A stretch of 64,000 nt of DNA from Bacteroidales bacterium (lineage in GTDB: Bacteria; Bacteroidota; Bacteroidia; Bacteroidales; UBA932), in the NCBI GenBank assembly GCA_045599325.1, contig JAZRVT010000005.1:17089-81088 (forward strand), given 5' to 3'. Both the position numbers and the translations under genes were made by a program. Every line of letters starts with the position of its first letter. The first letter of the stretch is position 1. Shown piece after piece: positions 9,302 to 59,721 of this stretch. Below the pieces are notes generated by a model. The model was not told where the DNA came from. It saw nothing but the letters and a program-made list of their open reading frames with translations, and did no database searches.

Positions 9302-9347
9302 ACCGCACTATGATGCACAAACTCTTTAATACGTTACAAAAATAGAT

Positions 9348-9355
9348 TAATTTTG
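9348..9355 (+). promoter_or_regulatory. Bacteroidetes -7 promoter box TAATTTTG upstream of miaA
   Basis: Exact TAnnTTTG match, 5 nt before the ATG at 9361. The track's GTG start at 9355 lies inside the box. Confidence 0.45.
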
Positions 9356-14851: not shown

Positions 14852-14859
14852 CAAAATTA
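14852..14859 (-). promoter_or_regulatory. -7 promoter box TAATTTTG (minus strand) upstream of pgk
   Basis: Plus strand reads CAAAATTA. Exact TAnnTTTG on the minus strand, 30 nt upstream of the ATG at 14821. Confidence 0.45.
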
Positions 14860-14872
14860 AGAAAAATATCCA

Positions 14873-14880
14873 TACCTTTG
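14873..14880 (+). promoter_or_regulatory. -7 promoter box TACCTTTG upstream of the methyltransferase gene
   Basis: Exact TAnnTTTG, 6 nt before the ATG at 14887. Confidence 0.45.
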
Positions 14881-20817: not shown

Positions 20818-20999
20818 TCAACAACTTCTCATATTTCCAAAAAATACTTATGAATCTGAGCCTTTGCTTCCCAATGATGATCTCCGACCGGATTGGGCGT
20901 GGTTTGAAAGTCGGTGACCGACCAGGACGTGACTTGCAAGATGCTGACCGACAAGGCAGCGTGATTCGCAAATACCTGATTATCAACCGATAGAGCAAC

Positions 21000-21026
21000 T
21001 TGGCTTCCCGAAAAACGGGAAGCCAA
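21000..21026. repeat. perfect 11-bp-stem hairpin/palindrome in the intergenic region
   Basis: TTGGCTTCCCG, loop AAAAA, CGGGAAGCCAA. Outer arms GATAGA (20989-20994) and TCTATC (21035-21040) could extend the stem. No U-tract follows on either strand. Confidence 0.6.
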
Positions 21027-21148
21027 ATCAAGCATCTATCTGATAATCTACAATTTACAAATCACGCCACAAAGGTAATCAATGAAAGTTGACCACCCCT
21101 CCCGACTTATGGCAGAGTAGCGCCGCTGCTGAAGCTGATTGGAGCACA

Positions 21149-21241
21149 CCGAGAAGTGCAAAACCGGCCTTCCCACACTTCTTGAAGGGTTCAGAAGGCC
21201 CGAGAAGTGCAATTCGGGGCCTCCGGCACTTCTTGACCCGG
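21149..21241. repeat. two tandem copies of a ~40-nt hairpin-forming repeat
   Basis: CCGAGAAGTGCAA occurs at 21149 and 21200, and CACTTCTTGA at 21176 and 21227 (51-nt period). Each copy folds as AGAAGTG(C)-N15-17-(G)CACTTCT. Confidence 0.65.
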
Positions 21242-21309
21242 ATAGTACTAGTTCAAAGGTCAGCGCCTTCGCTGCGGGGACGAAGAATCTATGTGAACAG
21301 AATAAATGC

Positions 21310-24514: not shown

Positions 24515-24522
24515 CAAAAGTA
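24515..24522 (-). promoter_or_regulatory. -7 promoter box TACTTTTG (minus strand) upstream of pyrH
   Basis: Plus strand reads CAAAAGTA. Exact TAnnTTTG, 39 nt upstream of the pyrH ATG (24475). Confidence 0.45.
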
Positions 24523-24554
24523 ACCATTTATTATGATTTTATCAAGTTTAGGCG

Positions 24555-24562
24555 TATATTTG
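24555..24562 (+). promoter_or_regulatory. -7 promoter box TATATTTG upstream of the cytochrome b gene
   Basis: Exact TAnnTTTG, 31 nt upstream of the ATG at 24594. Confidence 0.45.
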
Positions 24563-27268: not shown

Positions 27269-27299
27269 AGCAGTGTATTATATTTGTTGCAAAAATAGT

Positions 27300-27307
27300 T
27301 AATTTTG
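27300..27307 (+). promoter_or_regulatory. -7 promoter box TAATTTTG (second box TATATTTG at 27279-27286)
   Basis: Exact TAnnTTTG, 21 nt upstream of the ATG at 27329. The track's TTG start at 27305 lies inside the box. Confidence 0.4.
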
Positions 27308-27328: not shown

Positions 27329-27814
27329 ATGAGATACCTTGTCCGTTCCCTCAAATACCTTGCCTACTTTATGATATTCTTCATATTCATAGTGGGCGTC
27401 ATCTGGATCTTCTCCTCCCAGAAGCAGGCGGGACTTTCATTCGCCGAACTCTTCGAGGAAGGTTCGCTCCCTAAACTGGCAATATTCTTCATCGCCGTGG
27501 CAGCCGTCTATCCGGCGCTCGGCTTCCAGAAGAGGAAACTCTACCTCAACGGTGATTTCAGCAAATATGCAGGAGCAGTCCGCGAGGCGATGGAGTCCCT
27601 GGGCTATGAACTCGAATCTGAGGAGGGCGGCACAGTGACCTACCGCGTCGTCTCCGGCTACGGCCGCGCCACCAGGATGTGGGAGGACCGTATCACCTTC
27701 ACCACCAGCGACAACCCTGTCATCGTCGAAGGCATCCGCAAGGACCTCGTCCGCATCGCCAGCGCCGTCAACTTCAAGATCAGGGAACTCGACCCTCAGG
27801 AGACCGAGGCATAG
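27329..27814 (+). CDS. hypothetical membrane protein
   Basis: 161 aa from the ATG at 27329 (MRYLVRSLKY...). Two TM segments and then a soluble alpha/beta-looking domain. No domain recognised. Confidence 0.6.
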   Translation: MRYLVRSLKYLAYFMIFFIFIVGVIWIFSSQKQAGLSFAELFEEGSLPKLAIFFIAVAAVYPALGFQKRKLYLNGDFSKYAGAVREAMESLGYELESEEGGTVTYRVVSGYGRATRMWEDRITFTTSDNPVIVEGIRKDLVRIASAVNFKIRELDPQETEA

Positions 27815-27874
27815 TCTGTCCTACCCGTAACTGACAAACAAGACGGAAAAGGCGGTAGCGGCAGCTAATTCCCC

Positions 27875-29329
27875 TTAGATATTTTCCAATGTAGAGGCGA
27901 TCAGTTTCCACCACTTGGATACTGACGATACAAGAACTCTTTCGTCCGGAGAATGAGGGGAACATAGTGTCGGACCGCAGGATACCATCTGGATCTCAGG
28001 ATAAACGCCTGAAAGAATGCCACATTCAAGGCCTCCATGGAGAGCCTTGACAGCTGGTTCATATCCAAAGAGGCTGACGTATATTTCTTTCATCCTGTTC
28101 AGAATCGGAGAGCTCATATCAGGCTTCCAGCCGGAATACCAGCCTGAGAAAACACATTCAGCACCTGCCATCTCGAAAATTGAGCGAACAGCCTCTGCCT
28201 CTGCCAACTTTATTGAATCCGAAAGGCCACGAAGCATACACGTGACTCTCGCTTTCTCTTCCTCTGTCTTCACTATCGCGATATTGTTGGACGAATCCAC
28301 TACTCCCTCAATGTCAAGGCTCATTCTAAACACACCGTCCGGGCAGGAAACAATTGCCTTGAGGAGATTCAGTGCGACACAGTTTTCAATGGATGAAACC
28401 GCCTCAGTTCTGCTGACGGCTATTGTGACATTCGGATCCGCTTTGCCTGCTTCCGATTTCACCGCCGATGTGAATTCATCTATGAACAGTGACACTTTAT
28501 CAACCTCCTCTTGAGGAACTGCGATGACTGAGACAGCCTCACGAGGTATGGCGTTTCTCATATCACCGCCATCAAAGGAGACGAGCAGACAGCCCATATC
28601 ACGGACCAGAGGAAGTACGCATCTGGATGCAATCTTATTTGCGTTGGCACGTCCTTTCTCTATATCCATTCCAGAATGGCCGCCCAGCATCCCTTTAAAA
28701 ACAATTTCAAGAGCGACATATCCGGAAGGCAACGGAGTCCTTGAATAATTGAACATCGCATTGAAATCGTAGCCTCCGGCACACCCCACATAAAGCTCGC
28801 CTTCTGTCTCCGAATCAAAATTGATCAGGTAGTCTCCACTGAGGAATCCCTGTTTCACGTTCCTGACACCCGTCATTCCAGTTTCTTCTCCTACTGTGAA
28901 AAAGCCGTCCAACGGACCATGCTGCAAAGTGTCGGACTCCAGAACAGCCATTATCGCAGCGCATCCAAGACCATCATCCGCGCCCAGTGTCGTTCTGTCA
29001 GCCATAACCCACTGTTCTCCATCTATCAACTCAATATGAGTCTCTATAGGATCCTTCAAGAAATCATGAACTTTGTCCTTGTCTTTCTGGGGAACCATAT
29101 CCATATGTGCTTGGAGTATGATTTTCTTTTTACCCTCCATCCCCTTGGAGGCCGGTTTATGAATAAGCACATTACCCACAGAATCCCGTTCTGTTTCAAG
29201 TCCGAGACTTCGACCGAAATTCTCAATATAATCGCTCACCATTTCCTCATGCCTGCTTGCACGCGGTATCCTGGTGAGTTTATAGAAATTATTCCATACG
29301 CAACACGGTTCAAGATCTCTGATGGTCAT
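27875..29329 (-). CDS. pepD: aminoacyl-histidine (Xaa-His) dipeptidase, M20C family
   Basis: 484 aa. N-terminus LEPCCVWNNFYKLTRIPRASRHEE, metal-ligand blocks LQAHMDMV, GADDGLG and GEETGMTG, and C-terminal HSPDERV. Confidence 0.9.
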   Translation of the reverse strand: MTIRDLEPCCVWNNFYKLTRIPRASRHEEMVSDYIENFGRSLGLETERDSVGNVLIHKPASKGMEGKKKIILQAHMDMVPQKDKDKVHDFLKDPIETHIELIDGEQWVMADRTTLGADDGLGCAAIMAVLESDTLQHGPLDGFFTVGEETGMTGVRNVKQGFLSGDYLINFDSETEGELYVGCAGGYDFNAMFNYSRTPLPSGYVALEIVFKGMLGGHSGMDIEKGRANANKIASRCVLPLVRDMGCLLVSFDGGDMRNAIPREAVSVIAVPQEEVDKVSLFIDEFTSAVKSEAGKADPNVTIAVSRTEAVSSIENCVALNLLKAIVSCPDGVFRMSLDIEGVVDSSNNIAIVKTEEEKARVTCMLRGLSDSIKLAEAEAVRSIFEMAGAECVFSGWYSGWKPDMSSPILNRMKEIYVSLFGYEPAVKALHGGLECGILSGVYPEIQMVSCGPTLCSPHSPDERVLVSSVSKWWKLIASTLENI

Positions 29330-29357
29330 ATCGGATATTATTAAAGATTATTTTAGC

Positions 29358-30632
29358 CTATTGATCCCTTTTATTCAACTCAATTACGGTTTTTCTAAGA
29401 TCAGCCTTACGGACACCGTCAATCCTGACAGGATGTAGTTTGCCGTCTTCGCCTTTCACCGTGGTTGTCAATGTCCTGCGCGGGTCAATCATTTCCTGTT
29501 CATAATGAACTGCTCCTCTCCTGCATCTGTTGCCTGTCACCTGACCGGAGTCATCACGCCTGATAGAGCACCCATTAGGGCAAAGAGGGCATATTACCAC
29601 ACCTTCCTCCGGGAAACCCTTCTTCAAAGCACCTGAAGGAACGTACACAAACTCCTCCAACTGCTCATTCCTAAGGTATCTGGCCGCGTTCTTCCCAGCT
29701 ATTGCCCCCTGTTTAGAAACAAGGTCTGCAAGGTCCATGACCTTACGGCAGTTACCACAGGCAAAGATTCCCTTTCTGCTGGTCTGAAGGCAGTTATCAG
29801 TAAGCACTCCATTGCTTTTCCCATCAAGTTCTATGTGAGCTGTGAGTGCCACTTCATTTTCAGGGATAAGGCCAACTGAAAGCACCAGGCTGTCACATTC
29901 TATCAGTCTCTGAGTACCTGGAATGGGGCGTTTATTGTCGTCAACTGCCGAAATTTCAACTGCAGTGAGCTTACGGCGGCCAATGATATTGCTTACCGTA
30001 TGGCTCACATAGATTGGGATATCGAAATCATACAGGCACTGACTGATATTTCTCTGAAGTCCGCAAGGCTCCTTCATTATCTCAATTACTGCAAGGACTT
30101 TAGCCCCCTCCAGAGTAAGGCGGCGCGCCATAATCAACCCGATGTCTCCAGAACCGAGTATGACCACTCTCTTGCCAACCATAATATTTTTGACATTGAC
30201 AAGATCCTGGACCACTCCGGCTGTAAATACACCTGCGGGCCTGGTTCCTGGAATGGAGATTGCCCCACGTGTCCTCTCCCGGCACCCTGTTGCAAGAACA
30301 ATGGACTTTGACCGAATCTTGCGCAACCCCTCCCGGCACACGGCAGTTACTGTCTTGTCATCATCTATTGAGAGCACCATATGGCCGGTGGCGATTTCCA
30401 CACCTGCGGACACTGCCTCCTCACTTGCTCTCTGAGCATATTCAGGGCCAGTCAAAGCCGCATTATATCTGATAATTCCAAAACCGTCATGGATGCACTG
30501 TCGCAACACACCCCCGGAAAAATCGTTTCTGTCAAGAACGATAACCTTTTCGGCACCATTCTGTTTTGCCGCTGTAGCAGCAGCAAGGCCTCCAGGACCG
30601 GCACCCACAACAACAACATCAAATAATTCCAT
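29358..30632 (-). CDS. NAD(P)/FAD-dependent pyridine-nucleotide-disulfide-type oxidoreductase fused to a DUF1667-like C-terminal domain
   Basis: 424 aa. Two Rossmann motifs (VVVGAGPGGLAAA; VILGSGDIGLIMA) and ACGNC. The last ~85 aa (CPLCPNGCSI...GNRCRRGAVHYEQEMIDPRRTLTTTV) match the DUF1667 Cys pattern. Confidence 0.8.
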   Translation of the reverse strand: MELFDVVVVGAGPGGLAAATAAKQNGAEKVIVLDRNDFSGGVLRQCIHDGFGIIRYNAALTGPEYAQRASEEAVSAGVEIATGHMVLSIDDDKTVTAVCREGLRKIRSKSIVLATGCRERTRGAISIPGTRPAGVFTAGVVQDLVNVKNIMVGKRVVILGSGDIGLIMARRLTLEGAKVLAVIEIMKEPCGLQRNISQCLYDFDIPIYVSHTVSNIIGRRKLTAVEISAVDDNKRPIPGTQRLIECDSLVLSVGLIPENEVALTAHIELDGKSNGVLTDNCLQTSRKGIFACGNCRKVMDLADLVSKQGAIAGKNAARYLRNEQLEEFVYVPSGALKKGFPEEGVVICPLCPNGCSIRRDDSGQVTGNRCRRGAVHYEQEMIDPRRTLTTTVKGEDGKLHPVRIDGVRKADLRKTVIELNKRDQ

Positions 30633-32098
30633 TATTTAACCCTCCCACTATATAGTTCTGAACCGGGGCCTCTGAACGTGATATCCTCAGGCTCGATGTT
30701 GTACTCTTTCTCAAGTATTTCTGATATTCTTGAAAGACAGTATCCACCGTTACATCTTCCAGTTGTAGCCCAAACGCGGTATTTGATCCCAGAGATTGTC
30801 TTTACTCCAAGCGGATTTTCAATTGCCTGACATATCTCTTTCCTAGTGACTTGCTGGCATCTGCAGACCACATCACCATAAGATGGATCCTTCCTGATCA
30901 AATCAGCTTTAACCTCGTCCGGCTGTTCGCTGAATTTCAAAATCCGCTTGCGATTCGGCTTAACTTCTTTCTTTTTAAGTTCAAGTGTTTCCGCTATGAT
31001 GGACCGGACCATTTTTGCTATCGGCATCGAAGCTGTCATTCCAGGCGATTCTATCCCGACCAGATTAATAAAGCCTTTGCAGGAAGATTCTTCTTTGATT
31101 ACGAAATCGTGAAAACCTCCTTCTTTAGGAGGGGCCTGTTTCGACCTTATCCCCGAATATGCTCCGATTACCTGACTTCTTTCAAGTGTCGGAAGGAGTT
31201 TGTGAGCCTCAGCAAAGAGTCTGTCTATCAGTTCCTGAGTCGAAGCGTAATCTTCGCTGTCCTCTATATATTCAGCACTTGGTCCTATGATGATGTTCCC
31301 GTGTATTGTCGGTGTAAGATGCACTCCCAAGCCTCCAATATTGCGTTTTGGTGCAGGATATACAGGAACATTCAGCACCTTGTCAGCAATCTTGTCAAGT
31401 ATCAGGTACTCCCCACGGCAAGGGAATATGCGGTAATCCCCACAACCTGCCATTGCTGAGACTTTGGCCGAATTGAGGCCAGCGCAGTTTACTATCATCC
31501 TGCAGAGGAAAACCTTATCATTTGAGCTTACTTTGAAAAAGCCGTCTTCCTTATCGATTGATGAGACTTCCTGACCAAGGAAGAATTCAACGCCGTTGTC
31601 AGCGGCATTATCCGCAAGTGCAACAGTATATAGAAAAGGATCGAAGACCGCCGTATTAGGAGAATATAATGCTGCAATGCCTCCTACGTCAGGCAAGACA
31701 GAATGCAAAGCTTTTGCGTCAATTATCTCAAGGCCTTTGCAGCCGTTGGCCTTACCTTGCTCGAGAATTGACTCAAGGGTAGCATAATCTTCATTATCGA
31801 AAGCCACCACATACTTTCCAGTCTTTTTGTAGGGGACATCAAGGTCCTTGCATAGTTTTTCAAACCCATCATTCCCTTCCACACAAAGTCTGGCCATAAG
31901 ACTGCCGGGCCTATTGTTGAAGCCGGCGTGAACGACACCTGAATTACGACCGCTCGTGGCTGCCGCAACATCAAATTCTTTCTCCAGTACAGCGACCTTC
32001 AGGTCATAGCGGGAAAGATCATAGGCGACGGCGCATCCTACTGCGCCGGCGCCTATGATAAGGATATCAAACGGACTCATATCCATAAATGGTTGCAT
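30632..32098 (-). CDS. FAD-dependent dehydrogenase/oxidase, GlpA/LhgO-like, with C-terminal BFD-like [2Fe-2S] domain
   Basis: 488 aa. DILIIGAGAVGCAVAYDLS, FPCRGEY, GIESPGMTAS. C-terminal Cys pattern VCRCQQVTRKEI...TGRCNGGYC. Its stop overlaps the next start by 1 nt. Confidence 0.85.
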   Translation of the reverse strand: MQPFMDMSPFDILIIGAGAVGCAVAYDLSRYDLKVAVLEKEFDVAAATSGRNSGVVHAGFNNRPGSLMARLCVEGNDGFEKLCKDLDVPYKKTGKYVVAFDNEDYATLESILEQGKANGCKGLEIIDAKALHSVLPDVGGIAALYSPNTAVFDPFLYTVALADNAADNGVEFFLGQEVSSIDKEDGFFKVSSNDKVFLCRMIVNCAGLNSAKVSAMAGCGDYRIFPCRGEYLILDKIADKVLNVPVYPAPKRNIGGLGVHLTPTIHGNIIIGPSAEYIEDSEDYASTQELIDRLFAEAHKLLPTLERSQVIGAYSGIRSKQAPPKEGGFHDFVIKEESSCKGFINLVGIESPGMTASMPIAKMVRSIIAETLELKKKEVKPNRKRILKFSEQPDEVKADLIRKDPSYGDVVCRCQQVTRKEICQAIENPLGVKTISGIKYRVWATTGRCNGGYCLSRISEILEKEYNIEPEDITFRGPGSELYSGRVK

Positions 32099-32119
32099 TT
32101 ATTGCCTGACAAACACCAA

Positions 32120-33169
32120 TTAATAATATTTATAGCCAGCCTTCTTGAGTTGATCAATATTCTTGAATCTATGAGGCGGATTGAGGTATGAAGCCATGAA
32201 TTCATAAGTCTTGAACCTTATCTCTACGGACTCCCTGCTGTCAATCCTCTCAAATACGTGCGCTCCAGGCATTGGAGGATAAATCTCATATTCAAATTCT
32301 TTGTTGTAGAACTTCAGAGAATCTATCATCCTTTCTACTTCAGTATGGCTTACGTCATCATCATTTATGCAGGTAGTGATCATCAGCGGCCTTTCGAGCA
32401 ACTTTGCATATGTCACAGGGGACCTCCTTGCATATTCTTCCGGCTTTTCATCCGGTAGAGCGCCTATATGGTACTTAGGTGTAAAGTTATTCTTGTAACT
32501 CGGCAACTGATATGTCAGGCGATAGGCAACGTCGCTCACAGGGACACCGGCATACCCGCAGACATATTTTTCCGGATAACGAAGAATGCTCATCAAGGTT
32601 ATCATTCCTCCGTGGCTCCACCCCATTATACCGACGCGCTCCGGATCAACGACAGAGTAATTCTCCACCATATAGTCCCTTGCAGCAAGTACGTCTTCAT
32701 TTTCGAGTCCGCCGTAATCGATGGCCTCATATATCGCTCTGCCCCATCCTGTACTTCCACGATAATCCGGGCACAAAACGATATAACCCTGACAAACCAT
32801 TTCACGCAATATGTGAATGTAGGATGTTCCGAAAGAGCCATGGATTCCTCCGTGAGGGAAAACCATCAGCGGATATTTTTTCCCCTGCTTGATATCCTTG
32901 GGGAAAAACACATAGGAATAGAATATCAACTGATTATTGCGCAGTGTATCTTTGAACGCGCAATTCGGTTTTCTAGTCTGAACAGCCTTCGGAGGTCCGG
33001 CAAGTCTCAGGATATCCATATATGCGACGTCCTCCATCGCCATCCTGATGTAGACATTGTCAATCTTCTTCTGAGTATTCTGCTCAGAAGAATAATCCTG
33101 AGCGCTGGCGCTGCTGAAAATGAACAGCGCCAGTACAGGAAACAAAAACCCAAATAATCTATTAACCAT
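32120..33169 (-). CDS. secreted alpha/beta hydrolase, prolyl-oligopeptidase (S9) catalytic-domain type, no beta-propeller
   Basis: 349 aa with a signal peptide. Nucleophile elbow GWSHGG, candidate acid NDDDV and His GAHVF, in S9 order. Confidence 0.8.
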   Translation of the reverse strand: MVNRLFGFLFPVLALFIFSSASAQDYSSEQNTQKKIDNVYIRMAMEDVAYMDILRLAGPPKAVQTRKPNCAFKDTLRNNQLIFYSYVFFPKDIKQGKKYPLMVFPHGGIHGSFGTSYIHILREMVCQGYIVLCPDYRGSTGWGRAIYEAIDYGGLENEDVLAARDYMVENYSVVDPERVGIMGWSHGGMITLMSILRYPEKYVCGYAGVPVSDVAYRLTYQLPSYKNNFTPKYHIGALPDEKPEEYARRSPVTYAKLLERPLMITTCINDDDVSHTEVERMIDSLKFYNKEFEYEIYPPMPGAHVFERIDSRESVEIRFKTYEFMASYLNPPHRFKNIDQLKKAGYKYY

Positions 33170-33180
33170 AACTGCAGTTT

Positions 33181-34737
33181 TTAATCTTTATTGCTCAAAG
33201 GATTCTGGTCTTTTGTAATGTCAAGGGCTGCATTGCCATCGAATTCCATCTGTGGAATAGGCATAACCCACATATAACAGTCAGGTCTGCTTGTATCGCC
33301 TGTCACCTTAGTGATGGCATCGTTGCTGAATCCTTCCTCAGCCACTCTTACAAAGCCTTGCTTGAGTCTCTTGATATCGAAGATTCTTCCTACTTCAGCC
33401 CAAAGTTCAATTCGGCGCTGGATGATGATTTCTTCAAGAAGGGAGCCAGTCCATTCATCTGTCAACTTACCGAGGGCGGTTCCGGATTTATCACACTTAT
33501 AATCCGGGTCGCGTTTTGCCATCAGTTCATTGAGGAGGGTGATTGCAGCTCTGTCATTCCCCAAACGGCATTCCGCTTCAGCTTCAGTAAGTAGCATTTC
33601 CTCGTTGCGCATGAAAATATAGTCACCCATATACGTGGATATGTCAGCATACAGGAACTTCACCTGTTGATAGTGGAAGCCTCCTGCAACTTTCGAATCG
33701 GCCACAGCCTCGAACCACTTCCTGCGTATATCATTTGCACCCATCTTGCTGTAAAGAGTAGGCGTGATGTATTTAGGCTGCCTTGTTCCGTGAGTACCCT
33801 CCTTCTGCATATGGGCAAAGAGATTCCTCTGGTAATCAGTCTGGTCAGAGGTGATGATATGCCCCCATATGACATTCTGCACATCTACTCTGTTCATACC
33901 CTTGAGGATATCGTCCGCCTCACCTATCTTCGTATTGCTGCGGGCGATGGCAGCACACTCCTTGGCTTTCTGGAAATCGTTCATTTCCATAGCGACCCTT
34001 GCTCTGAAACCGTTTGCAGTGAAGTAGTCGATATGAGAGATGTGTGTCTTCTCGTGTGAAGCATTAAGCCTGGTGATTGCTGTATCCAGGTCAGCCACTA
34101 TCACATTATAGACCTCCTGCACGCTTGAACGAGGCTTACCCGAAGTTCCCGCAGAACTCGGCTCTGTGTATACCGGCACGCACGGATCGGACTCGTGGCC
34201 TTTGTATGTTCTTGAAAACCATTGAGCGAGCATAAAATAGCTGAAACCGCGGATAGCGTATGCCTGGCCAATTATGTAGTTGATCTCTGAAGGAGTGCCC
34301 TGCATGATTTCCTTAGAGTCAATGATGTAGTTTGCATTGGCAATGTAGGTATAGAACTCTTTCCAGGCACTTCCGGAACGGCCTGAAGTTGCGGTCCACC
34401 TTTCCTTCATCGTATATGTATGGTCTCTGTAGAACCAGTTTCCACCCTTAAGCGCTATGATCATATCATCTCCCATTGCATCAGCAGCGAGCAGGTCTGC
34501 CCTGAGGGCGAAGTTCATAGTATAGTCACCTGCCGTACTCCAACCATGACTGTGCATCAAGGAATAGATGCCATTGAGAGGAACAAGGGCCGCAGTGGTG
34601 TTGTCAAACATGCTTGACCCTGATACTTTTGTAGTCGGATTCGTCTCCAGCGCATCCTCCGAGCAAGAAACGGAGATGCACGCAAACAAAAGCGCCGTTA
34701 ATATGTATAATGCTGTCTTTTTCATAAGTGTACTCAT
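33181..34737 (-). CDS. RagB/SusD family nutrient-binding outer membrane lipoprotein
   Basis: 518 aa. Lipobox ISVSCSE, helical SusD-like sequence, and a start abutting the susC stop (TAAATG). Confidence 0.9.
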   Translation of the reverse strand: MSTLMKKTALYILTALLFACISVSCSEDALETNPTTKVSGSSMFDNTTAALVPLNGIYSLMHSHGWSTAGDYTMNFALRADLLAADAMGDDMIIALKGGNWFYRDHTYTMKERWTATSGRSGSAWKEFYTYIANANYIIDSKEIMQGTPSEINYIIGQAYAIRGFSYFMLAQWFSRTYKGHESDPCVPVYTEPSSAGTSGKPRSSVQEVYNVIVADLDTAITRLNASHEKTHISHIDYFTANGFRARVAMEMNDFQKAKECAAIARSNTKIGEADDILKGMNRVDVQNVIWGHIITSDQTDYQRNLFAHMQKEGTHGTRQPKYITPTLYSKMGANDIRRKWFEAVADSKVAGGFHYQQVKFLYADISTYMGDYIFMRNEEMLLTEAEAECRLGNDRAAITLLNELMAKRDPDYKCDKSGTALGKLTDEWTGSLLEEIIIQRRIELWAEVGRIFDIKRLKQGFVRVAEEGFSNDAITKVTGDTSRPDCYMWVMPIPQMEFDGNAALDITKDQNPLSNKD

Positions 34738-37700
34738 TTAGAACGTTACTTTCAAGCCGATAACAGATGTTTTGGTAGGGTTATAGACATAGTTTGTCGT
34801 ACCGCCAATGCTCTGCTGAGGGTTCATACCGTTGAGGTGTGTGAATGTCCAGAAGTTATCAAGGGAGCCATAGATTCTCAACTGCTGAGCCTTGATCCCC
34901 TGAATCCATTTCTTAGGGAGGTTAAATCCGAGAGTGATGTTCTTGATTGCAAAATAAGAAGCATCGATAAGCAGACGGCTCGAGATAGGTGACGAACCGC
35001 CGAGTTCAGCACGAGGCACATCTGTCACGTCACCCGGCTTCTGCCATCTGTCAAGCACATAAGTAGAAAGGGCCCTGCCTGTCTGTGTAGGCGCCACTAA
35101 CTCCTTATAGATCTGGTCATAAACCTTGCCGCCAAGTGAATAGGTAGTCAATATGCTGAGGTCCACATACTTGAAGATTTCAAAATCGGTACCGATGGAA
35201 CCGGTGAGCTTAGGCATACGGCTCCCTAGATAATACTTGCATCCAGTCGCAACTGCGAAGTCAGTAGTCAGATACTCTCCTACAGGATTTCCATTCTCAT
35301 CCATGCTTTCATATGCCCAGAACTGTTCCTTTCCAGTTTCAGGATCCACGCCTGCGTGCTTTACCATATAGAAGGTGTACATCGGCCGGCCTTCCTCATA
35401 GATCTGTTGTCCGCTGACATAAGAAGGCGACTCTGTAGTAAGTTTCAATATCTTGTTCTGGATTGAAGTTCCCATCACGCTCGCCTTCCAGGTGAAGTTC
35501 TTTCTGTCCACGAGAACACCTCTTACAGAAAACTCGACACCCTTGTTCTCAAGGCTTCCCACATTCGCATCATATCCGCTGAAACCGGTGGACACGGCCA
35601 TAGGATAGTTCAGGAGCATATCTCTTGTGACTCTGTCGTAGTACTCCACTGTGAAATCGAGTCTGTCACCGAACATTCTGGCATCGAGTCCGACGTTCAA
35701 GTTGGCATTCTTTTCCCAAGTCACGTTCTTGTTCTCCAATGAAGAGACCACTGCTCCCTGAGCTCCGTCATTAGGATGCCCGAGCTCGTAGAAACTCTGC
35801 CATGCATAGTAAGTGTCAAGGTCATCATTTCCCTGAACGCCATAACTGACCCTCAGATTGAGATTGTTGAGCCATCCTACCGACTGCATGAAGTTCTCAT
35901 TAGTTACGCGCCAGTTAGCACCGACAGACCAGAAATTGCCCCAACGGTTTTCTTTATAGAAACGGGATGAACCGTCACGACGGAAAGAAGCCGAGAAATA
36001 ATATCTGTTCTTGTAATCATAGTTGATACGGGAAAGATAGGACTCGATAGCATAGACATTCGAGTATGAGTCATTGTCAACACTGGATGTGGCAGGACGA
36101 AGCTCATATATTCCATCTGTCAGATTTGATTTGGTGGCATCCAGATAATGGTACACATAATTGTAGTACTCGTGACCGCCTACGAAATCTATGGTGTGTC
36201 CGGAGAATGTCCTGTTATAGGTCAGCAGCTGGTTGAAGGTGAAGCTTGTAGTTCTCTTGAAATATTTATAGAGGCGGCCGTTTGCAGGTGCATAGGATCC
36301 GTTATACATATTGTTGTACTGGGTCTGATAGATGTCACGGTTGTCACCGCCGAAGTTGGCTGTCAACTTGAGCCCCTTGAGCCATCCTGCATTATCCTTG
36401 TCAGTGCCGAGACGGAGGTAAGTCCTGACACTTTCATTCATTCCCTCCTGAGAGTTGTCATCTTCATAGATAAGACCGACCACATTCCAACCCGGCCAGG
36501 ACGGTCTTGTCTCACCATAGTCATATACCAAGTTCCCGAGCTCATCGTAAATCTGCTTGCCTGAAGCGTCTTTTGCATAGATTGGATAAATAGGACCTAT
36601 GAGCTGTGCATAGTAGAACTGGTTGCCGTATGAGTTTCCTGTAGTCAGGATTCCCTTGAAATCAGTCTTTGCAAGAGAAACGTTGAGGCCTGCGGAAATC
36701 CAGTGTGTAATTTCAGAATCCACATTTGCTCTCGCGCTGAATCTCGTATAGCCGGCATTGTTGACATATCCGTCCTCATCAAGATAGCCCAAAGAGAGCA
36801 TGGATTTGGTCTTTTCCGTGCCGCCTGTCACAGAAAGCAGGTGCTCTGTCCTGAAAGCGTTGTGGTGAACGACGCCGTCATCAAGCCAGTCCTCATCCCA
36901 TACAGGAGTTGCATCGCTGCGGACATGACCTGTTTCATCAATGATATTTCCCCAGGTGTAGTTCTTGAACGGGTTGTAGATCTCACCGCCCATTGTCGTC
37001 GACATATTGTCTCTTGCTGCCTGCTCTGCTTCTTCCCAGCTGTAATTGCCTGTATCCCAGTACTTGTTTCTCAAAGACTCGTAGCTGAGCTGTGTCCACT
37101 GTTTCTGGTCAAGTCTGTCATAATATTTGAGAGCAGGATTAGACCAGCCCACTATGCCAGTGTAAGTGACGGTCGGCTGACCGGCCTTGCCTTTCTTGGT
37201 AGTAATCATAACTACGCCGTTTGCACCACGCGCACCATAAAGAGCGCCTGAAGAAGCATCCTTGAGGACGGTGATACTTTCAATATCATTAGGATTGATG
37301 GCATTCAAGCCCCCATCATAAGGGATGCCGTCCACTACGTAGAGAGGTTCCTTTGAAGCATTGATTGAGCCATAGCCACGAATCACAATGCTGTTTCCCT
37401 CGCCCGGAGCACCGGAGCCTGATGTCACCATCACACCGGCGACCTGACCCTCAAGTGACTTGGCCACATTGGCAGAAACTCTCTGCTCGATCTTCTTATC
37501 ATCAACAACAGCAGCAGAGCCGGTGATTGAACCTTTCTTTGCAGTACCATAGGCTACGACCACCGTTTCTTCAAGCAGCTGCGCATCTTTCTTGAGAGCA
37601 ACCGCTATGCTCTGACGTTTCTTCACAGCGACAATCTGAGAGGTGTATCCGATTGAAGAAATTTCCAGTTCACCGTCGAAAGGTACATTTTCTATGGTGA

Positions 37701-38145
37701 ATTCTCCATTCTCATTTGCAGAGACACCGTTCATCGTACCCTTGAGGACAATGCTCGCAAAGGCGATAGGGGTTCCATCTTCAATGGCGGTGACTTTACC
37801 TGTCACCTTGAGTCCGGACGGCTGCTCTTTTGGTGCAGGATCACCCTTTTTCAAAACGACTGCTTGACGTACAATTTCATAAGTAAGTCCTGTTTCCTGG
37901 CAAATCCTGCCGAGAACTTCCGTGAATCCAACATTGTCCATAGAAACAGTCAAAGGAGCGATTCCGCTCAGCTCCTGCTTCTGATAAACAAAAGTGTAGT
38001 TTGTTTTACTTTCGAGATCTGCAAGGACTTGCACAATTGGTGCATCCTTATAGTTGACACTGAATGTCTGTGCCTTTACCGCAGAAGGTATGAGCATCAG
38101 GCAAACCAACAGCGCCATGCTAAGTTTTTTAAAGGTCTCTGACAT
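34738..38145 (-). CDS. SusC/RagA family TonB-linked outer membrane transducer with N-terminal STN signalling domain
   Basis: 1135 aa. Signal peptide, STN-like domain (FSVNYKDAPIVQVLADLESKTNYTFVY), carboxypeptidase-regulatory-like domain, plug (IVIRGYGSINASKEPLYVVDGIPY), and a barrel ending GLKVTF. Confidence 0.93.
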   Translation of the reverse strand: MSETFKKLSMALLVCLMLIPSAVKAQTFSVNYKDAPIVQVLADLESKTNYTFVYQKQELSGIAPLTVSMDNVGFTEVLGRICQETGLTYEIVRQAVVLKKGDPAPKEQPSGLKVTGKVTAIEDGTPIAFASIVLKGTMNGVSANENGEFTIENVPFDGELEISSIGYTSQIVAVKKRQSIAVALKKDAQLLEETVVVAYGTAKKGSITGSAAVVDDKKIEQRVSANVAKSLEGQVAGVMVTSGSGAPGEGNSIVIRGYGSINASKEPLYVVDGIPYDGGLNAINPNDIESITVLKDASSGALYGARGANGVVMITTKKGKAGQPTVTYTGIVGWSNPALKYYDRLDQKQWTQLSYESLRNKYWDTGNYSWEEAEQAARDNMSTTMGGEIYNPFKNYTWGNIIDETGHVRSDATPVWDEDWLDDGVVHHNAFRTEHLLSVTGGTEKTKSMLSLGYLDEDGYVNNAGYTRFSARANVDSEITHWISAGLNVSLAKTDFKGILTTGNSYGNQFYYAQLIGPIYPIYAKDASGKQIYDELGNLVYDYGETRPSWPGWNVVGLIYEDDNSQEGMNESVRTYLRLGTDKDNAGWLKGLKLTANFGGDNRDIYQTQYNNMYNGSYAPANGRLYKYFKRTTSFTFNQLLTYNRTFSGHTIDFVGGHEYYNYVYHYLDATKSNLTDGIYELRPATSSVDNDSYSNVYAIESYLSRINYDYKNRYYFSASFRRDGSSRFYKENRWGNFWSVGANWRVTNENFMQSVGWLNNLNLRVSYGVQGNDDLDTYYAWQSFYELGHPNDGAQGAVVSSLENKNVTWEKNANLNVGLDARMFGDRLDFTVEYYDRVTRDMLLNYPMAVSTGFSGYDANVGSLENKGVEFSVRGVLVDRKNFTWKASVMGTSIQNKILKLTTESPSYVSGQQIYEEGRPMYTFYMVKHAGVDPETGKEQFWAYESMDENGNPVGEYLTTDFAVATGCKYYLGSRMPKLTGSIGTDFEIFKYVDLSILTTYSLGGKVYDQIYKELVAPTQTGRALSTYVLDRWQKPGDVTDVPRAELGGSSPISSRLLIDASYFAIKNITLGFNLPKKWIQGIKAQQLRIYGSLDNFWTFTHLNGMNPQQSIGGTTNYVYNPTKTSVIGLKVTF

Positions 38146-38163
38146 AATTTATATAATTTGGTT

Positions 38164-39393
38164 TTATGGTCTCTTTGAAATCAGTATCCTGTTGTTTTCC
38201 ACTGCAAAATGGAGATGTCCACTCTTTTCCAGGACTTCAAGCACATCTCCGAACTTTCCGTTGCGGGCAAGCCTTCCCATAAAAACGGTTTTGGCAGCCT
38301 CCTCCGATTTAAACTCATAGGAGAAGTCGTACCAACGGCTCAGCTGTCTCATTATCTGTTCAAGCGTCTGCTCCTCAAAAACGAACATTCCGTCTTTCCA
38401 GCTTGTCACCAAATCCGTTGAAACAGGCTTGACTTGAGTGGACCCGTCACCTTTGGCGAAGGAGGCCTGATGTCCCGGGGTAAGAATCAGTTCGCTGTCG
38501 CTGCCGTCGTTCTTTTTCAGAGAGATACACCCGTTGACAAGCGTGGTATAGACACACTCGTCTTCCTCATATGAGAGAACGTTGAACTCTGTGCCATAGA
38601 CACAGACCGTCTGTCCTGAAGTCCTGACTCTGAACTGCCGGCCCCTGCTGTCTTTGGCCACCTTGAAATAGGCCTCTCCGGTCAATTCCACATCTCGTGT
38701 ATCACCGTCGAAACAATCCGGATACCTCAAGACTGATTCAGCATTCAACCACACTTCAGAACCATCCTCCAGAACTATATGGAACTCACCGCCGCGGGGA
38801 ATGGAAAGATTGTTGAGTGCCTCGCGATCCTTGGCCGACTTCTCCCTTTTCTCTTTCGCCGCCGTTATGGCTTCGTGGTTGTTTGCCTCATTATTGCCAA
38901 GGACGACTGTCTGCCCGTTGTCCGTAACAAGGGTCGCCTTTGTCTCGCCCGGACGTATGGACTCGAAATAGGACGTTTCCTGCGTTTTCTTCAGAAGATT
39001 CTCATACTTTCGATGATAACTTATCAATTGCCAGGAAAGTATGGACAATGCTATAAATGCGGAAGCTGCTACAGCACGCATTGCTGCAAGATGTTTGCGC
39101 TGCGCCTTTCTGTATTCTATTGTAATCCTGTTCTGCATCGATCGCGCAGCTCCCTGAGGATCAATGAGATTCCATTGTTCTAATTTCCCGGCATACCAGT
39201 TCTCTGCCATAATCTTATCAAAAAGCTTCGCATTGGCAGGGTTTGTGTCAATCCAGTTCTGAAGTTCGGAGGATTCTTCTTCAGAAACCACCTGAAAAAT
39301 GTTTTTGGAAATCAGTTCCGCAATCCGTTCAAAATCCACGTCCTTTTCTATCATTTGCCTGGCATTATTTATCCAACTGAATATATGACACAT
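38164..39393 (-). CDS. FecR family anti-sigma factor
   Basis: 409 aa. Cytoplasmic N-domain, single TM (AVAASAFIALSILSWQLI), periplasmic FecR-like domain, and a C-terminal DUF4974-like segment (FVFEEQTLEQIMRQLSRWYDF). Alternative start at ATG 39354 (MIEKDVDF). Confidence 0.88.
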   Translation of the reverse strand: MCHIFSWINNARQMIEKDVDFERIAELISKNIFQVVSEEESSELQNWIDTNPANAKLFDKIMAENWYAGKLEQWNLIDPQGAARSMQNRITIEYRKAQRKHLAAMRAVAASAFIALSILSWQLISYHRKYENLLKKTQETSYFESIRPGETKATLVTDNGQTVVLGNNEANNHEAITAAKEKREKSAKDREALNNLSIPRGGEFHIVLEDGSEVWLNAESVLRYPDCFDGDTRDVELTGEAYFKVAKDSRGRQFRVRTSGQTVCVYGTEFNVLSYEEDECVYTTLVNGCISLKKNDGSDSELILTPGHQASFAKGDGSTQVKPVSTDLVTSWKDGMFVFEEQTLEQIMRQLSRWYDFSYEFKSEEAAKTVFMGRLARNGKFGDVLEVLEKSGHLHFAVENNRILISKRP

Positions 39394-39451
39394 TCAGATA
39401 AAAAAAGTATACATGAATTCTGAAATATGACAACATATCCATGCTATTCTG

Positions 39452-39459
39452 TAACTTTG
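39452..39459 (+). promoter_or_regulatory. -7 promoter box TAACTTTG upstream of the ECF sigma gene
   Basis: Exact TAnnTTTG, 8 nt before the ATG at 39468 and downstream of the track's start at 39441. This argues for 39468 as the real start. Confidence 0.45.
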
Positions 39460-39467
39460 CGTTGAGT

Positions 39468-40034
39468 ATGGACGAACACTCTATATATGATGATTTCATC
39501 TCTGGAGATATCGAGTCCCTGTATATGAAGATATACAGAGGTCTTGTCTCATTCGCTAACAGCTATCTGAGCCCTAATTACTCTTTCCTTTCGGAAGATG
39601 TCGTTCAAGAGTGCATCTACAATGCATTCAAGAGGAAAGACAGCATCAAGCGCGGATTTCTGAAAGCATATCTGTTCACATCGGTACGCAACGCCTGTCT
39701 CAATATCCTGAGAAAAGGCCGGTCCAATGAGAACTATTTGAAATACTTCAATGAAAGTGAAAACGATATAATCAACAATATCATTGAAGAAGAGACATTC
39801 CACATCTTGTTCACAACCATCGAAAAGCTATCCTTCAACCACAGGGAAGTATTGAACATGTCATTTTTTGAAGGATTGAAAATCAGCGAGATCGCTCAGA
39901 GGCTCGGTCTGTCTGAAATAGCCGTCAAAAAAAGAAAGGCCAACGCTTTGGAAGCCCTTAAGGACTTACTGGCGAGAGAAGGCGTTCTTGGCGCAGGCAT
40001 GGCGACTGTCTCTCTCGTACTGCGACTGCTTTAA
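39468..40034 (+). CDS. RNA polymerase ECF-type sigma-70 factor
   Basis: 188 aa from the ATG at 39468. Region 2 (EDVVQECIYNAFKR) and region 4 HTH (LKISEIAQRLGLSEIAVKKRKANAL). Divergent from fecR. Confidence 0.88.
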   Translation: MDEHSIYDDFISGDIESLYMKIYRGLVSFANSYLSPNYSFLSEDVVQECIYNAFKRKDSIKRGFLKAYLFTSVRNACLNILRKGRSNENYLKYFNESENDIINNIIEEETFHILFTTIEKLSFNHREVLNMSFFEGLKISEIAQRLGLSEIAVKKRKANALEALKDLLAREGVLGAGMATVSLVLRLL

Positions 40035-40074
40035 CTCCAATTTGATTCCTGCCTGCCGGAAACGATCCAGCACG

Positions 40075-40680
40075 TTATTTACCCAGATAATCCGCCACTT
40101 CGCAGAGTTCGCGGTAGAAGTCCTCGCCGTAGGCGGCGATGAGGGGTTCGCGGAGGAATCTGTAGACAGGGACGTCATCGCGGCGACCTTTGTCGAAGGC
40201 GCACTTGCAGATGTCCCAGCGGTGGAGGTTGAGGGCGGTCAGACCGTTTGAGAGCACCTTCGCGCGTATCGGGTAGAGACGGCAGGAAATCGGCTTGACA
40301 AAGCCGCCACGCTTTGCCCGAAGGGCATCATTTCCGAGGCACCAGGCCCTCTCCACGGCACACATACAGTTATTGCCCTCAAAATGTGTGAAGGCACACT
40401 CCTCGCTGCCGCCGAGCAGCGGAGTGACCGCATCGCCGTCGATGTCGATCTCGAAGAAACCGGTCTCCGCAACCTTCTCCCGGCCGGCCTCGCTCATATA
40501 TGGAGAGTACTCCTCATAGTGGCGCTCAAGAAGTTCATCCTCCCCGTCAGAGAGCGGTGCGCCGCTGTCACCTATAATACAACAGGCCCCGCGGCATACC
40601 TCATAGTCGCAGCAGAAGCGCTCGGTGATGATCTCCGAGGAGACAAGAGTCTCCCCTATCTGTATGATGGATGGTATCAT
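40075..40680 (-). CDS. DUF3109 family Cys-rich protein
   Basis: 201 aa from the ATG at 40680 (MIPSIIQIGETLVS...). CDYEVCRGACC motif typical of DUF3109. Confidence 0.8.
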   Translation of the reverse strand: MIPSIIQIGETLVSSEIITERFCCDYEVCRGACCIIGDSGAPLSDGEDELLERHYEEYSPYMSEAGREKVAETGFFEIDIDGDAVTPLLGGSEECAFTHFEGNNCMCAVERAWCLGNDALRAKRGGFVKPISCRLYPIRAKVLSNGLTALNLHRWDICKCAFDKGRRDDVPVYRFLREPLIAAYGEDFYRELCEVADYLGK

Positions 40681-40686
40681 TATTTG

Positions 40687-40694
40687 CAAATTTA
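40687..40694 (-). promoter_or_regulatory. -7 promoter box TAAATTTG (minus strand) upstream of the DUF3109 gene
   Basis: Plus strand reads CAAATTTA. Exact TAnnTTTG, 6 nt before the ATG at 40680. The track's TTG start at 40689 lies inside the box. Confidence 0.45.
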
Positions 40695-40706
40695 AACAAT
40701 TGTTGA

Positions 40707-40714
40707 TAATTTTG
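40707..40714 (+). promoter_or_regulatory. -7 promoter box TAATTTTG upstream of the TPR gene
   Basis: Exact TAnnTTTG, 51 nt upstream of the ATG at 40766. Confidence 0.45.
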
Positions 40715-59701: not shown

Positions 59702-59709
59702 CAAAGATA
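59702..59709 (-). promoter_or_regulatory. -7 promoter box TATCTTTG (minus strand) upstream of the HD-YbaK gene
   Basis: Plus strand reads CAAAGATA. Exact TAnnTTTG, 23 nt upstream of GTG 59678. Confidence 0.4.
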
Positions 59710-59713
59710 TCAT

Positions 59714-59721
59714 TATATTTG
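59714..59721 (+). promoter_or_regulatory. -7 promoter box TATATTTG upstream of the esterase gene
   Basis: Exact TAnnTTTG, 5 nt before the ATG at 59727. Back-to-back with the minus-strand box, 4 nt away. Confidence 0.45.

Follow-up and report, generated by a model that had tools for sequence, protein, structure and literature searches.

The characterised SusCD-type importer of oligopeptides is RagAB of Porphyromonas gingivalis, which, in contrast to the locus described here with its STN-like extension, is not known to have an STN extension, a sigma/anti-sigma pair or linked enzymes. SusCD loci that are linked to a sigma/anti-sigma pair are, classically, host-glycan systems. A survey of 28,250 susC/D loci found that ~52% of them are without carbohydrate-active enzymes (CAZymes) and that 11% of those encode peptidases or sulfatases (Lapebie et al. 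2019, PMC6499787), and some of the CAZyme-free loci may target substrates other than glycans (PMC6499787). Polysaccharide utilization loci (PULs) linked to peptidases have also been noted in Prevotella and Proteiniphilum (PMC5993710). Here we describe a SusCD locus in a 64,000-nt stretch of DNA from an uncultured gut Bacteroidales bacterium of the lineage UBA932 (contig JAZRVT010000005.1, positions 17,089 to 81,088; hereafter the window) that combines a sigma/anti-sigma pair with peptide-active enzymes and no recognised CAZyme. With some reserve, we favour the explanation that it is a laterally acquired, self-regulated SusCD nutrient-uptake operon for peptides, not glycans.

Gene content of the locus

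The locus comprises eight intact genes, and the open reading frame (ORF) table agrees with the coordinates, strands and gaps given in a preliminary description of this DNA. The gene for an extracytoplasmic function (ECF) sigma factor (39468-40034, plus strand; Sigma70_r2 and r4 domains, TIGR02937 score of 73.6 against a cut-off of 42.9) is divergent from an operon of seven minus-strand genes, separated from fecR to pepD by 18, 0, 11, 21, -1 and 28 nt. The first of these, 18 nt upstream of susC, encodes a FecR-type anti-sigma factor (38164-39393; FecR 51.6 bits and FecR_C 68.7 bits, both above threshold). It is followed by genes for a SusC/RagA-type TonB-dependent transporter with an N-terminal STN-like extension (34738-38145; TIGR04056, TIGR04057 and Plug), a SusD-like surface lipoprotein of the kind that acts as lid and ligand binder (33181-34737; SusD-like_3, SusD_RagB and a lipobox) and a secreted, propeller-less S9 serine peptidase of 349 aa (32120-33169; Peptidase_S9 115 bits). 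The last three genes encode a FAD dehydrogenase subunit with a DAO fold and a C-terminal [2Fe-2S] BFD domain (30632-32098; DAO 247 bits, Fer2_BFD 34.9 bits), a fusion of a NOX/thioredoxin-reductase-like flavoprotein to a DUF1667-type Cys-rich domain (29358-30632; Pyr_redox_2 125 bits, DUF1667 23.6 against a threshold of 27) and a cytoplasmic PepD-type M20 dipeptidase (27875-29329; TIGR01893 514.3 against 343.75).

The transport genes susC and susD are co-oriented neighbours with a gap of 0 nt. SusC carries a Sec signal and scores 768.3 on TIGR04056 (cut-off 368.25) and 64.5 on the signature model TIGR04057 (cut-off 46.2). SusD exceeds the thresholds of SusD-like_3 (70.2 bits) and SusD_RagB (47.7 bits), has a lipobox that ends at Cys25, and has orthologues of 61-85% identity in three of the related loci described below (L001, L003 and L010). 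Among solved chains, the best match to SusC was 8aa4 (383 bits), with RagA second (347 bits, aligned over the full length), and no RagB chain was among the PDB matches of SusD at E <= 1e-3; RagB orthology was not detected, and with its extra regulators and enzymes the locus does not appear to be a RagAB orthologue. Localisation signals place SusC, SusD and the S9 protein among exported proteins, whereas PepD and both flavoproteins are without a signal peptide and are thus predicted to be cytoplasmic.

Pfam and NCBIfam profile searches found no glycoside hydrolase (GH), polysaccharide lyase (PL), carbohydrate esterase (CE), sulfatase or sugar-catabolic family among the eight proteins, as the preliminary description had noted by eye. 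By these searches and a search with the S9 fold, the locus lies outside the CAZyme-bearing PULs in the strict sense, which have at least one GH, PL or CE gene.

A low-G+C island with empty sites in sister lineages

The eight genes lie in a low-G+C island of 12,269 nt (27815-40083), delimited by its composition and by its presence or absence among sister lineages. Its G+C content is 0.468, compared with 0.557 for the rest of the window, and G+C at third codon positions (GC3) is 0.44-0.54 in island genes and 0.57-0.75 in the flanking genes. In tetranucleotide usage the island correlates with the background at 0.41-0.47, the sequence outside it at 0.84-0.94. The anomaly is large and its edges are sharp; the AT-richer insert of the preliminary description is therefore real, neither profile being flat. 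On both sides the island is flanked by housekeeping genes, namely those for DAHP synthase/chorismate mutase, frr, pyrH, a radical-SAM gene, DUF3109, a TPR gene and U32.

Looking up the exact sequence of the ribosome recycling factor (RRF, frr) encoded in the flank gave contigs of relatives; the same look-ups with the island DAO protein and the flanking DUF3109 matched no record. In three relatives with ~91-93% DNA identity (L023, L024 and L026) the site is empty, with ~31 nt connecting window positions 27814 and 40084. Since the 12,269 nt of the window correspond to just ~31 nt in these sister contigs, the block is a true presence/absence island. In another contig (L027) the pepD end of the island is present, with the same left junction as in the window. 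This left junction (27815-27874) extends from the stop codon of orf161, a 161-aa ORF, to the pepD stop codon, and the empty sites are homologous to the window up to the last nucleotide of orf161 (27814, the end of its stop codon). The right junction (40035-40083) extends from the sigma stop codon to the last codons of DUF3109, with homology resuming at 40084. There the DUF3109 protein ends in VADYLGK in the window and in VAEYLKGQVR in the empty sites, each followed by the stop codon (window 40075-40095, L023:5895-5927), which indicates that an insertion or deletion event remodelled the end of the neighbouring gene.

A search of the window and island found no tRNA, Rfam family, integrase or transposase, and at the island ends there were no terminal direct or inverted repeats and no target-site duplication. 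The block thus shows deviant composition and presence/absence at a fixed site, as genomic islands do, and is without the hallmarks of mobility. These results agree with the preliminary description, which had proposed lateral acquisition on compositional grounds while seeing no integrase, tRNA or flanking direct repeat, and the empty sites in sister lineages add to its argument. The island may have come from a relative and entered by recombination between flanking sequences, or it may have been lost elsewhere by clean deletion; whichever the route, its composition makes the block foreign to the present backbone.

Between the window and L027, pepD is 87.5% identical in nucleotides (27875-28934 and L027:111-1170), with a synonymous divergence (dS) of 0.57, compared with 90-97% and 0.30-0.33 for the adjacent backbone genes. 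The island copies are thus more diverged than their backbones, which hints at separate acquisitions by the island-bearing lineages or at recombination of island alleles. In addition, the island has two GC3 sub-blocks, pepD and the flavoprotein genes (27875-32098) at 0.44-0.47 and the S9 gene through sigma (32120-40034) at 0.50-0.54, a pattern compatible with an operon of mosaic origin.

Presence/absence variation between strains, as seen for the island, is frequent among competition loci, and for SusCD pairs import extends to proteins, an example being the Bacteroides ubiquitin homologue (PMC11467351). Both points could be taken to mean that the locus takes up a specific bioactive peptide, be it a signal, a toxin or an antimicrobial, in a sensing, detoxifying or competitive role rather than for nutrition. 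We regard this as very improbable, as the cargo genes encode general catabolic exopeptidases and redox enzymes, and genes for immunity, toxins or export are absent.

Elsewhere in the window, a stretch left of the DAHP-synthase gene (20851-21269) could not be aligned with L025:4917-5742, from a relative that is 91-92% identical; the difference, a minor replacement or indel, has no connection with the island. The flanking U32 protein has relatives of at most 60% identity, and the host lineage is poorly sampled within Bacteroidales.

Related loci and their conserved core

We traced relatives of the S9 protein and of SusD to their contigs, ~45 loci in all. Scans of reference genomes and metagenomes with two narrow peptide patterns from the SusD alignment gave 11 and 24 loci, mostly of the ~48% identical Prevotellaceae type described below. 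The closest loci, L010 and L011 (75-90% protein identity), have the gene order of the window from SusC to PepD, including pepD beside the flavoprotein pair; the synteny that the preliminary description had proposed to look for does therefore recur. Comparison of the window with L010 gave ratios of nonsynonymous to synonymous divergence (dN/dS) of 0.04-0.09 for pepD, the NOX-like gene, susD and susC. In the DAO-BFD and S9 genes, saturation at synonymous sites prevented an estimate of dS, and the proportion of nonsynonymous differences (pN) was only 0.07-0.10. These low values indicate that the island genes are functional.

More distant loci keep the front of the operon and differ in what follows. 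In L001, L002 and L053 (76-81% identity for S9, 58-64% for SusC/D) the genes for sigma, FecR, SusC and SusD are followed by those for an MR_MLE epimerase, a PF00144 protein, S9 and another PF00144 protein, to which L001 and L002 add an aminopeptidase-C homologue and an M28 aminopeptidase. In L003, L012 (Ca. Egerieisoma) and L013 (S9 66-70%) the order is sigma, FecR, SusC, SusD, S9 and an FGase-like lipoprotein. The cargo of all these sister loci is exported, with twin-arginine translocation (TAT), Sec or lipoprotein signals. The comparison of gene orders thus identifies sigma, FecR, SusC, SusD and S9 as the conserved unit, S9 being the only enzyme common to all sigma-linked loci, and the rest as exchangeable, peptide-directed, lineage-specific cargo.

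A sister clade from rumen Prevotellaceae (~48% SusD identity; L014-L022 and L029-L048, for example L017:6792-15328 in Xylanibacter ruminicola Ga6B6) consists of a SusC without the extension, SusD and a ~285-aa surface lipoprotein with a Cys plus acidic export motif, and has no sigma/anti-sigma pair. An M6 (InhA-like) metalloprotease gene follows the lipoprotein gene in 11 of the 29 loci of this clade, which looks like a protein-foraging SusCD locus. As every orthologous core examined, together with the Prevotellaceae clade, carries only peptide-active enzymes, the locus appears to be a peptide-directed SusCD system with trans-envelope signalling, as the preliminary description had suggested.

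One metagenomic sample (ERZ1767606) was the source of both L053, an epimerase-type locus, and L026, an empty-site contig of the window's lineage, so that donor-like loci and island-free recipients co-occur.

The customary association of sigma/anti-sigma-linked SusCD loci with host glycans counts in favour of a different reading, namely that the locus is a glycan or glycopeptide PUL with its CAZymes elsewhere in the genome, resembling the classical ECF-sigma/anti-sigma host-glycan PULs of Bacteroides. CAZyme-less loci may indeed work with remote CAZymes (Lapebie et al., PMC6499787), and in L053 the sigma gene is closely preceded by a GH97 gene. However, the unit is free of CAZymes in all of the ~45 related loci; conserved glycoside hydrolases in orthologous loci are what the preliminary description had said would speak against its proposal. 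The linked enzymes are all active on peptides or amino acids, and the S9 protein resembles peptidases rather than esterases. We therefore consider a glycan substrate improbable.

The sister loci also point to a more specific version of the peptide explanation, the scavenging of murein peptides with D-amino acids, which we put forward tentatively as one of the less probable readings. The core would import stem peptides released by other gut bacteria and the S9 enzyme would remove the C-terminal D-Ala, after which the epimerase and PF00144 proteins, the FGase-like amidase or, in the window, PepD would finish the breakdown in a manner comparable to MpaA-YcjG-PepD of E. coli. The epimerase of L001 and L053, which has a TAT signal, matches PDB entries 3iji, 3ijl and 3ijq (E = 4e-139, 467 bits, ~65% identity as read off the alignment), and also L-Ala-D/L-Glu epimerases and the N-acetyl-D-Glu racemase DgcA. 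We take 3iji to be BT1313 of B. thetaiotaomicron, and found no paper for 3IJQ or 3IJL to confirm it. BT1313 is a YkfB-like L-Ala-D-Glu epimerase, assigned to a murein-peptide pathway that has been proposed for the periplasm and relies on an alpha/beta-hydrolase domain to take off the terminal D-Ala (PMC4600125), and the murein-tripeptide route of E. coli runs through MpaA and the YcjG epimerase to PepD as its last enzyme (PMC2954226). Proteins of PF00144, a DD-peptidase fold, recur in the sister loci, PepD is present in the window, and the best structural neighbours of the S9 protein are S9 carboxypeptidases. On the other hand, the window variant is without the epimerase, a PF00144 protein or a gamma-D-Glu-DAP amidase, PepD is a generalist dipeptidase, PF00144 also covers esterases, no muramidase or amidase is linked, and we found no publication on SusCD import of muropeptides or stem peptides.

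The S9 hydrolase

The enzyme of the conserved core has a Sec signal, a GWSHGG nucleophile motif and a catalytic domain only. The nucleophile motif, D270-272 and H304 are all invariant among 47 homologues. It is without an N-terminal beta-propeller, the ~60 residues between signal peptide and catalytic domain being modelled as a helix and a beta-hairpin. Its PDB sequence matches are S9 peptidases without exception. In a Foldseek search with the predicted model (pLDDT 88.7) the best matches were the S9 carboxypeptidases 8wt1 and 7ep9, followed by acylaminoacyl-peptidases and DPP9, and no carbohydrate esterase was among the 50 matches listed. An identity as a carbohydrate or feruloyl esterase, raised by a score of 35.6 bits on the BD-FAE family, was rejected in view of the S9 score of 115 bits and of the peptidase-only neighbours in sequence and fold. 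Judging from sequence and predicted structure, the 349-aa hydrolase is an S9 peptidase domain, carboxypeptidase- or acylaminoacyl-peptidase-like, which upholds the S9-type assignment first made from its sequence.

Homologues of the enzyme with 66-68% identity also occur outside any SusCD context (L004:7484-11044 and L054:1848-2894), where the neighbouring genes encode an esterase and an ArsP_2 permease or a short-chain dehydrogenase. The S9 enzyme family is thus broader than the locus family.

Regulation of the operon

The sigma factor scores below the cut-off of the Bacteroides-specific model TIGR02985 (107.3 against 126.4). Its gene has an alternative in-frame start at 39441; the Bacteroidetes housekeeping -7 promoter motif TAnnTTTG (TAACTTTG) at 39452-39459 on the plus strand, 8 nt upstream of the ATG at 39468, favours the latter start. 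In the whole window this motif has 32 matches compared with 14.7 expected. That at 39452-39459 is the sole intergenic match within the island, and on the minus (operon) strand there is none anywhere in the island. The motif also clusters in divergent intergenic spacers of the backbone (for example 9337-9355, 14852-14880, 24515-24562, 27279-27307, 40687-40714 and 59702-59721).

The best promoter-like site of the region lies upstream of fecR on the minus strand (39406-39435; TGTTGTCA ... GTATAC) and is a candidate sigma-dependent promoter for the operon. A GT(T/G)(G/A)T(C/A) ... (C/T)GT motif pair occurs at a similar position upstream of fecR in L001, L003, L012, L013 and L053. As far as sequence can tell, this arrangement is compatible with constitutive expression of the sigma gene and sigma-dependent transcription of the seven-gene operon. 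A scan for terminators gave 9 sites, no excess over the 10.8 expected from shuffled sequence; one alone is on the operon strand, within the coding sequence for DAO-BFD (31610-31588), and no site is intergenic. Such a scan is uninformative for Bacteroidetes.

SusC has an N-terminal extension of ~85 aa ahead of its CarboxypepD_reg domain, which scores below the Pfam threshold for STN. Each of the seven related loci that encode FecR has such an extension, and it is absent from every FecR-less (Prevotellaceae-type) related locus in which the N-terminal core of SusC was recovered. The SusC orthologue of L001 has an unmarked STN match.

The flavoprotein pair and PepD

The cargo specific to the window's branch consists of the two flavoproteins and PepD. 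The latter passes the aa-His dipeptidase model TIGR01893 and falls below the E. coli equivalog model NF011600 (425.6 against 991). The NOX-like protein, whose gene overlaps the upstream one by 1 nt, has a C-terminal CPLCPNGC...C motif, and in the loci compared its gene always follows the DAO-BFD gene.

A DAO-BFD protein, a NOX-like protein and DUF1667 together form the architecture of the Thermococcus-type anaerobic glycerol-3-phosphate (G3P) dehydrogenase, or GlpTk, also found in Thermotoga and Clostridia (PMC11962113; PMC7282089), and the window pair shares this subunit arrangement with trios in L057 and L058. G3P-linked trios such as those of Vescimonas and R. albus are only 38-39% identical to the window DAO protein and have DUF1667 as a separate gene. 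The Vescimonas trio adjoins a G3P-responsive antiterminator (GlpP), the only GlpP linkage seen, and in neither the window nor L006-L011 is the pair linked to glpK, glpF or glpP.

Residues of the putative substrate pocket point to a different substrate. In the L-2-hydroxyglutarate dehydrogenase (L2HGDH) of Drosophila, the ligand is contacted by S88, H92, Y289, L299, H302 and R393 (PMC10726252). All six residues have an identical counterpart in the window DAO protein, S53, H57, Y247, L257, H260 and R318, and all six are invariant in its 121 closest homologues. At sites 289, 299 and 302 the window clade has Y, L and H, compared with F, K and L in G3P-linked trios and F, K and I in GlpO of M. pneumoniae. 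The Drosophila study lists Y289 as conserved in GlpO (PMC10726252), with which our sequence alignment disagrees; L299 and H302 discriminate on both accounts. Profile scores separate the two groups in the same manner: on GlpO-II the window clade scores 245-257 bits and the G3P-linked trios 295-307, whereas on LhgO the window clade scores 232-240 bits and the trios 155-163, ~80 bits lower. On the curated LhgO model NF008726 the window protein remains below the cut-off (238.7 against 299). Orthology to G3P dehydrogenase, suggested by the architecture (PMC11962113, PMC7282089), was rejected on the pocket residues, the 38-39% identity, the profile scores and the missing glp linkage, and the earlier label "GlpA-like" is not supported, given this identity and the L2HGDH-type ligand residues. 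The pair is probably a paralogue of GlpTk with a pocket for 2-hydroxy-dicarboxylates of the L-2-hydroxyglutarate (L-2-HG) type.

Beyond the island family, the closest relatives of the pair are Clostridia proteins of 60-65% identity whose context is not conserved, and elsewhere the pair sits in capsule-biosynthesis or nrdD contexts. Finding the pair in very different contexts indicates that it is a portable module. A 69%-identical pair lies within a capsule-type cluster in L006:3643-6383 and L007:4735-7475, with genes for Capsule_synth, ACP_syn_III, NeuB, AMP-binding/PP-binding and acyltransferase proteins.

It is possible, if less probable than a single functional unit, that the locus is a composite, in which sigma, FecR, SusC, SusD and S9 form a peptide-uptake unit and the pair and pepD are unrelated genes that were transferred with it and are perhaps co-transcribed by read-through. 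The restriction of the pair and pepD to the closest relatives, the difference in GC3 between the sub-blocks, the 60-65% identity of the pair to Clostridia proteins and its capsule-biosynthesis or nrdD contexts elsewhere, and the cytoplasmic location of these proteins, when the cargo enzymes of the sister loci are all exported, would all be expected of passengers. A functional link is favoured by the tight gaps (21, -1 and 28 nt) and an operon strand free of housekeeping promoter motifs, by the conserved order in L010 and L011 under purifying selection, and by PepD, which fits as a terminal peptide-degrading step. The preliminary description had made the pair and pepD part of the utilisation locus; the tight packing supports this, but they are not members of the conserved core, and their functional coupling to the transporter is putative.

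Proposed function

In the explanation that we favour, a self-regulated uptake operon for peptides, an oligopeptide would be captured by SusD and SusC and brought through the outer membrane; the identities of these genes are clear, and the ligand class is suggested by the cargo genes. The loaded SusC would signal through its STN-like extension to FecR and so release the ECF sigma factor, as the protein architecture leads one to expect. The freed sigma factor could then transcribe fecR, susC, susD, the S9 gene, the flavoprotein genes and pepD as one unit from the 74-nt spacer, presumably in a single transcript. In the periplasm the S9 hydrolase would shorten the peptide, its most likely activity being that of an exo- or carboxypeptidase, and the products would reach the cytoplasm by a transporter encoded outside the locus. 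There PepD would cleave dipeptides, and the two-subunit flavoenzyme may oxidise a 2-hydroxy-dicarboxylate-type metabolite to the 2-oxo acid.

Several observations weigh against this explanation. The ligand class is deduced from neighbouring genes alone. The best solved homologue of SusC, 8aa4, is presumably part of a glycan (dextran) system. The SusC extension scores 21.6 on the STN family of Pfam, below its threshold of 28.4, and the S9 protein also exceeds the Pfam threshold of the BD-FAE esterase family (35.6 bits, compared with 115 for S9). No inner-membrane transporter is encoded in the locus. Moreover, pepD and the pair may be passengers, as their GC3 (0.44-0.47) is lower than that of the core (0.50-0.54), the pair occurs in unrelated contexts, and all three genes are confined to the closest relatives (85-87% identity) and missing from the more distant orthologous loci. 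Finally, L-2-hydroxyglutarate is not an obvious product of peptide breakdown.

The nature of the peptide can be narrowed somewhat. Xaa-His dipeptides, carnosine and collagen peptides, named as candidates in the preliminary description, received no specific support; the sister loci point to D-Glu-containing peptides. At its most specific, and as a conjecture that we would not expect to hold, the core could represent an inducible family for scavenging peptidoglycan-derived D-amino-acid peptides with swappable modules, to which the window adds PepD and a hitherto unrecognised anaerobic L-2-hydroxyglutarate-type dehydrogenase complex on the GlpTk architecture.

Approximately half of the susC/D loci of Bacteroidota are CAZyme-free, with substrates that are almost entirely unknown, and this locus offers a well-delimited family to test. 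Its useful traits are a conserved core with swappable cargo, a natural presence/absence polymorphism and a sigma/anti-sigma switch that could serve as a reporter of the inducing ligand. If the ligand is derived from murein, the locus would provide gut Bacteroidales with a route to consume peptidoglycan fragments that are also host immune signals. The flavoprotein pair belongs to a widespread clade of Clostridia and Bacteroidales annotated only as "NAD(P)/FAD-dependent oxidoreductase", and is a candidate oxygen-independent L-2-hydroxyglutarate-type dehydrogenase.

Comparison with known systems

The statement that a PUL type of this kind had not been described was too strong, as CAZyme-free, peptidase-bearing susC/D loci are recognised (PMC6499787) and RagAB has been characterised. 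What appears to be new here is the sigma-gated orthologous family, its behaviour as an island, the lead towards D-amino-acid peptides and the re-assignment of the flavoprotein clade.

Of the enzymes in the cargo, the flavoprotein pair resembles GlpTk (PMC11962113) in its DAO and BFD domains, NOX-like partner and DUF1667, yet it is without the Lys and Leu/Ile signature of the G3P-linked trios, has DUF1667 as a fusion and is linked to neither glpK nor glpP. The ligand-contact residues of its DAO protein are those of L2HGDH (PDB 8w75; PMC10726252), from which, as from LhgO, it differs by a BFD domain, a partner subunit and a score below the LhgO cut-off. In murein catabolism (MpaA-YcjG-PepD of E. 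coli, YkfABC of B. subtilis and BT1087/BT1314/BT1313 of B. thetaiotaomicron; PMC2954226, PMC4600125) there are counterparts to the YcjG/YkfB/BT1313-type epimerase homologue of the sister loci and to the PepD of the window. Unlike the locus described here, these pathways recycle the cell's own wall and are not known to be linked to a SusCD importer or a sigma/anti-sigma pair.

As a whole, the locus resembles RagAB as a CAZyme-free SusC/SusD-type pair that is probably directed at peptides, with RagA the second-best solved homologue of its SusC. With the host-glycan PULs of B. thetaiotaomicron it shares an ECF sigma factor, a FecR-type anti-sigma factor and, putatively, a SusC with an N-terminal signalling extension, but those PULs have glycoside hydrolases or sulfatases, whereas the window locus and its orthologues have only peptide-active enzymes. 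It belongs to the category of CAZyme-free, peptidase-containing susC/D loci in PULDB (PMC6499787), a heterogeneous, uncharacterised class, within which it stands out as a specific orthologous family with a conserved S9 peptidase, sigma/anti-sigma control and swappable cargo.

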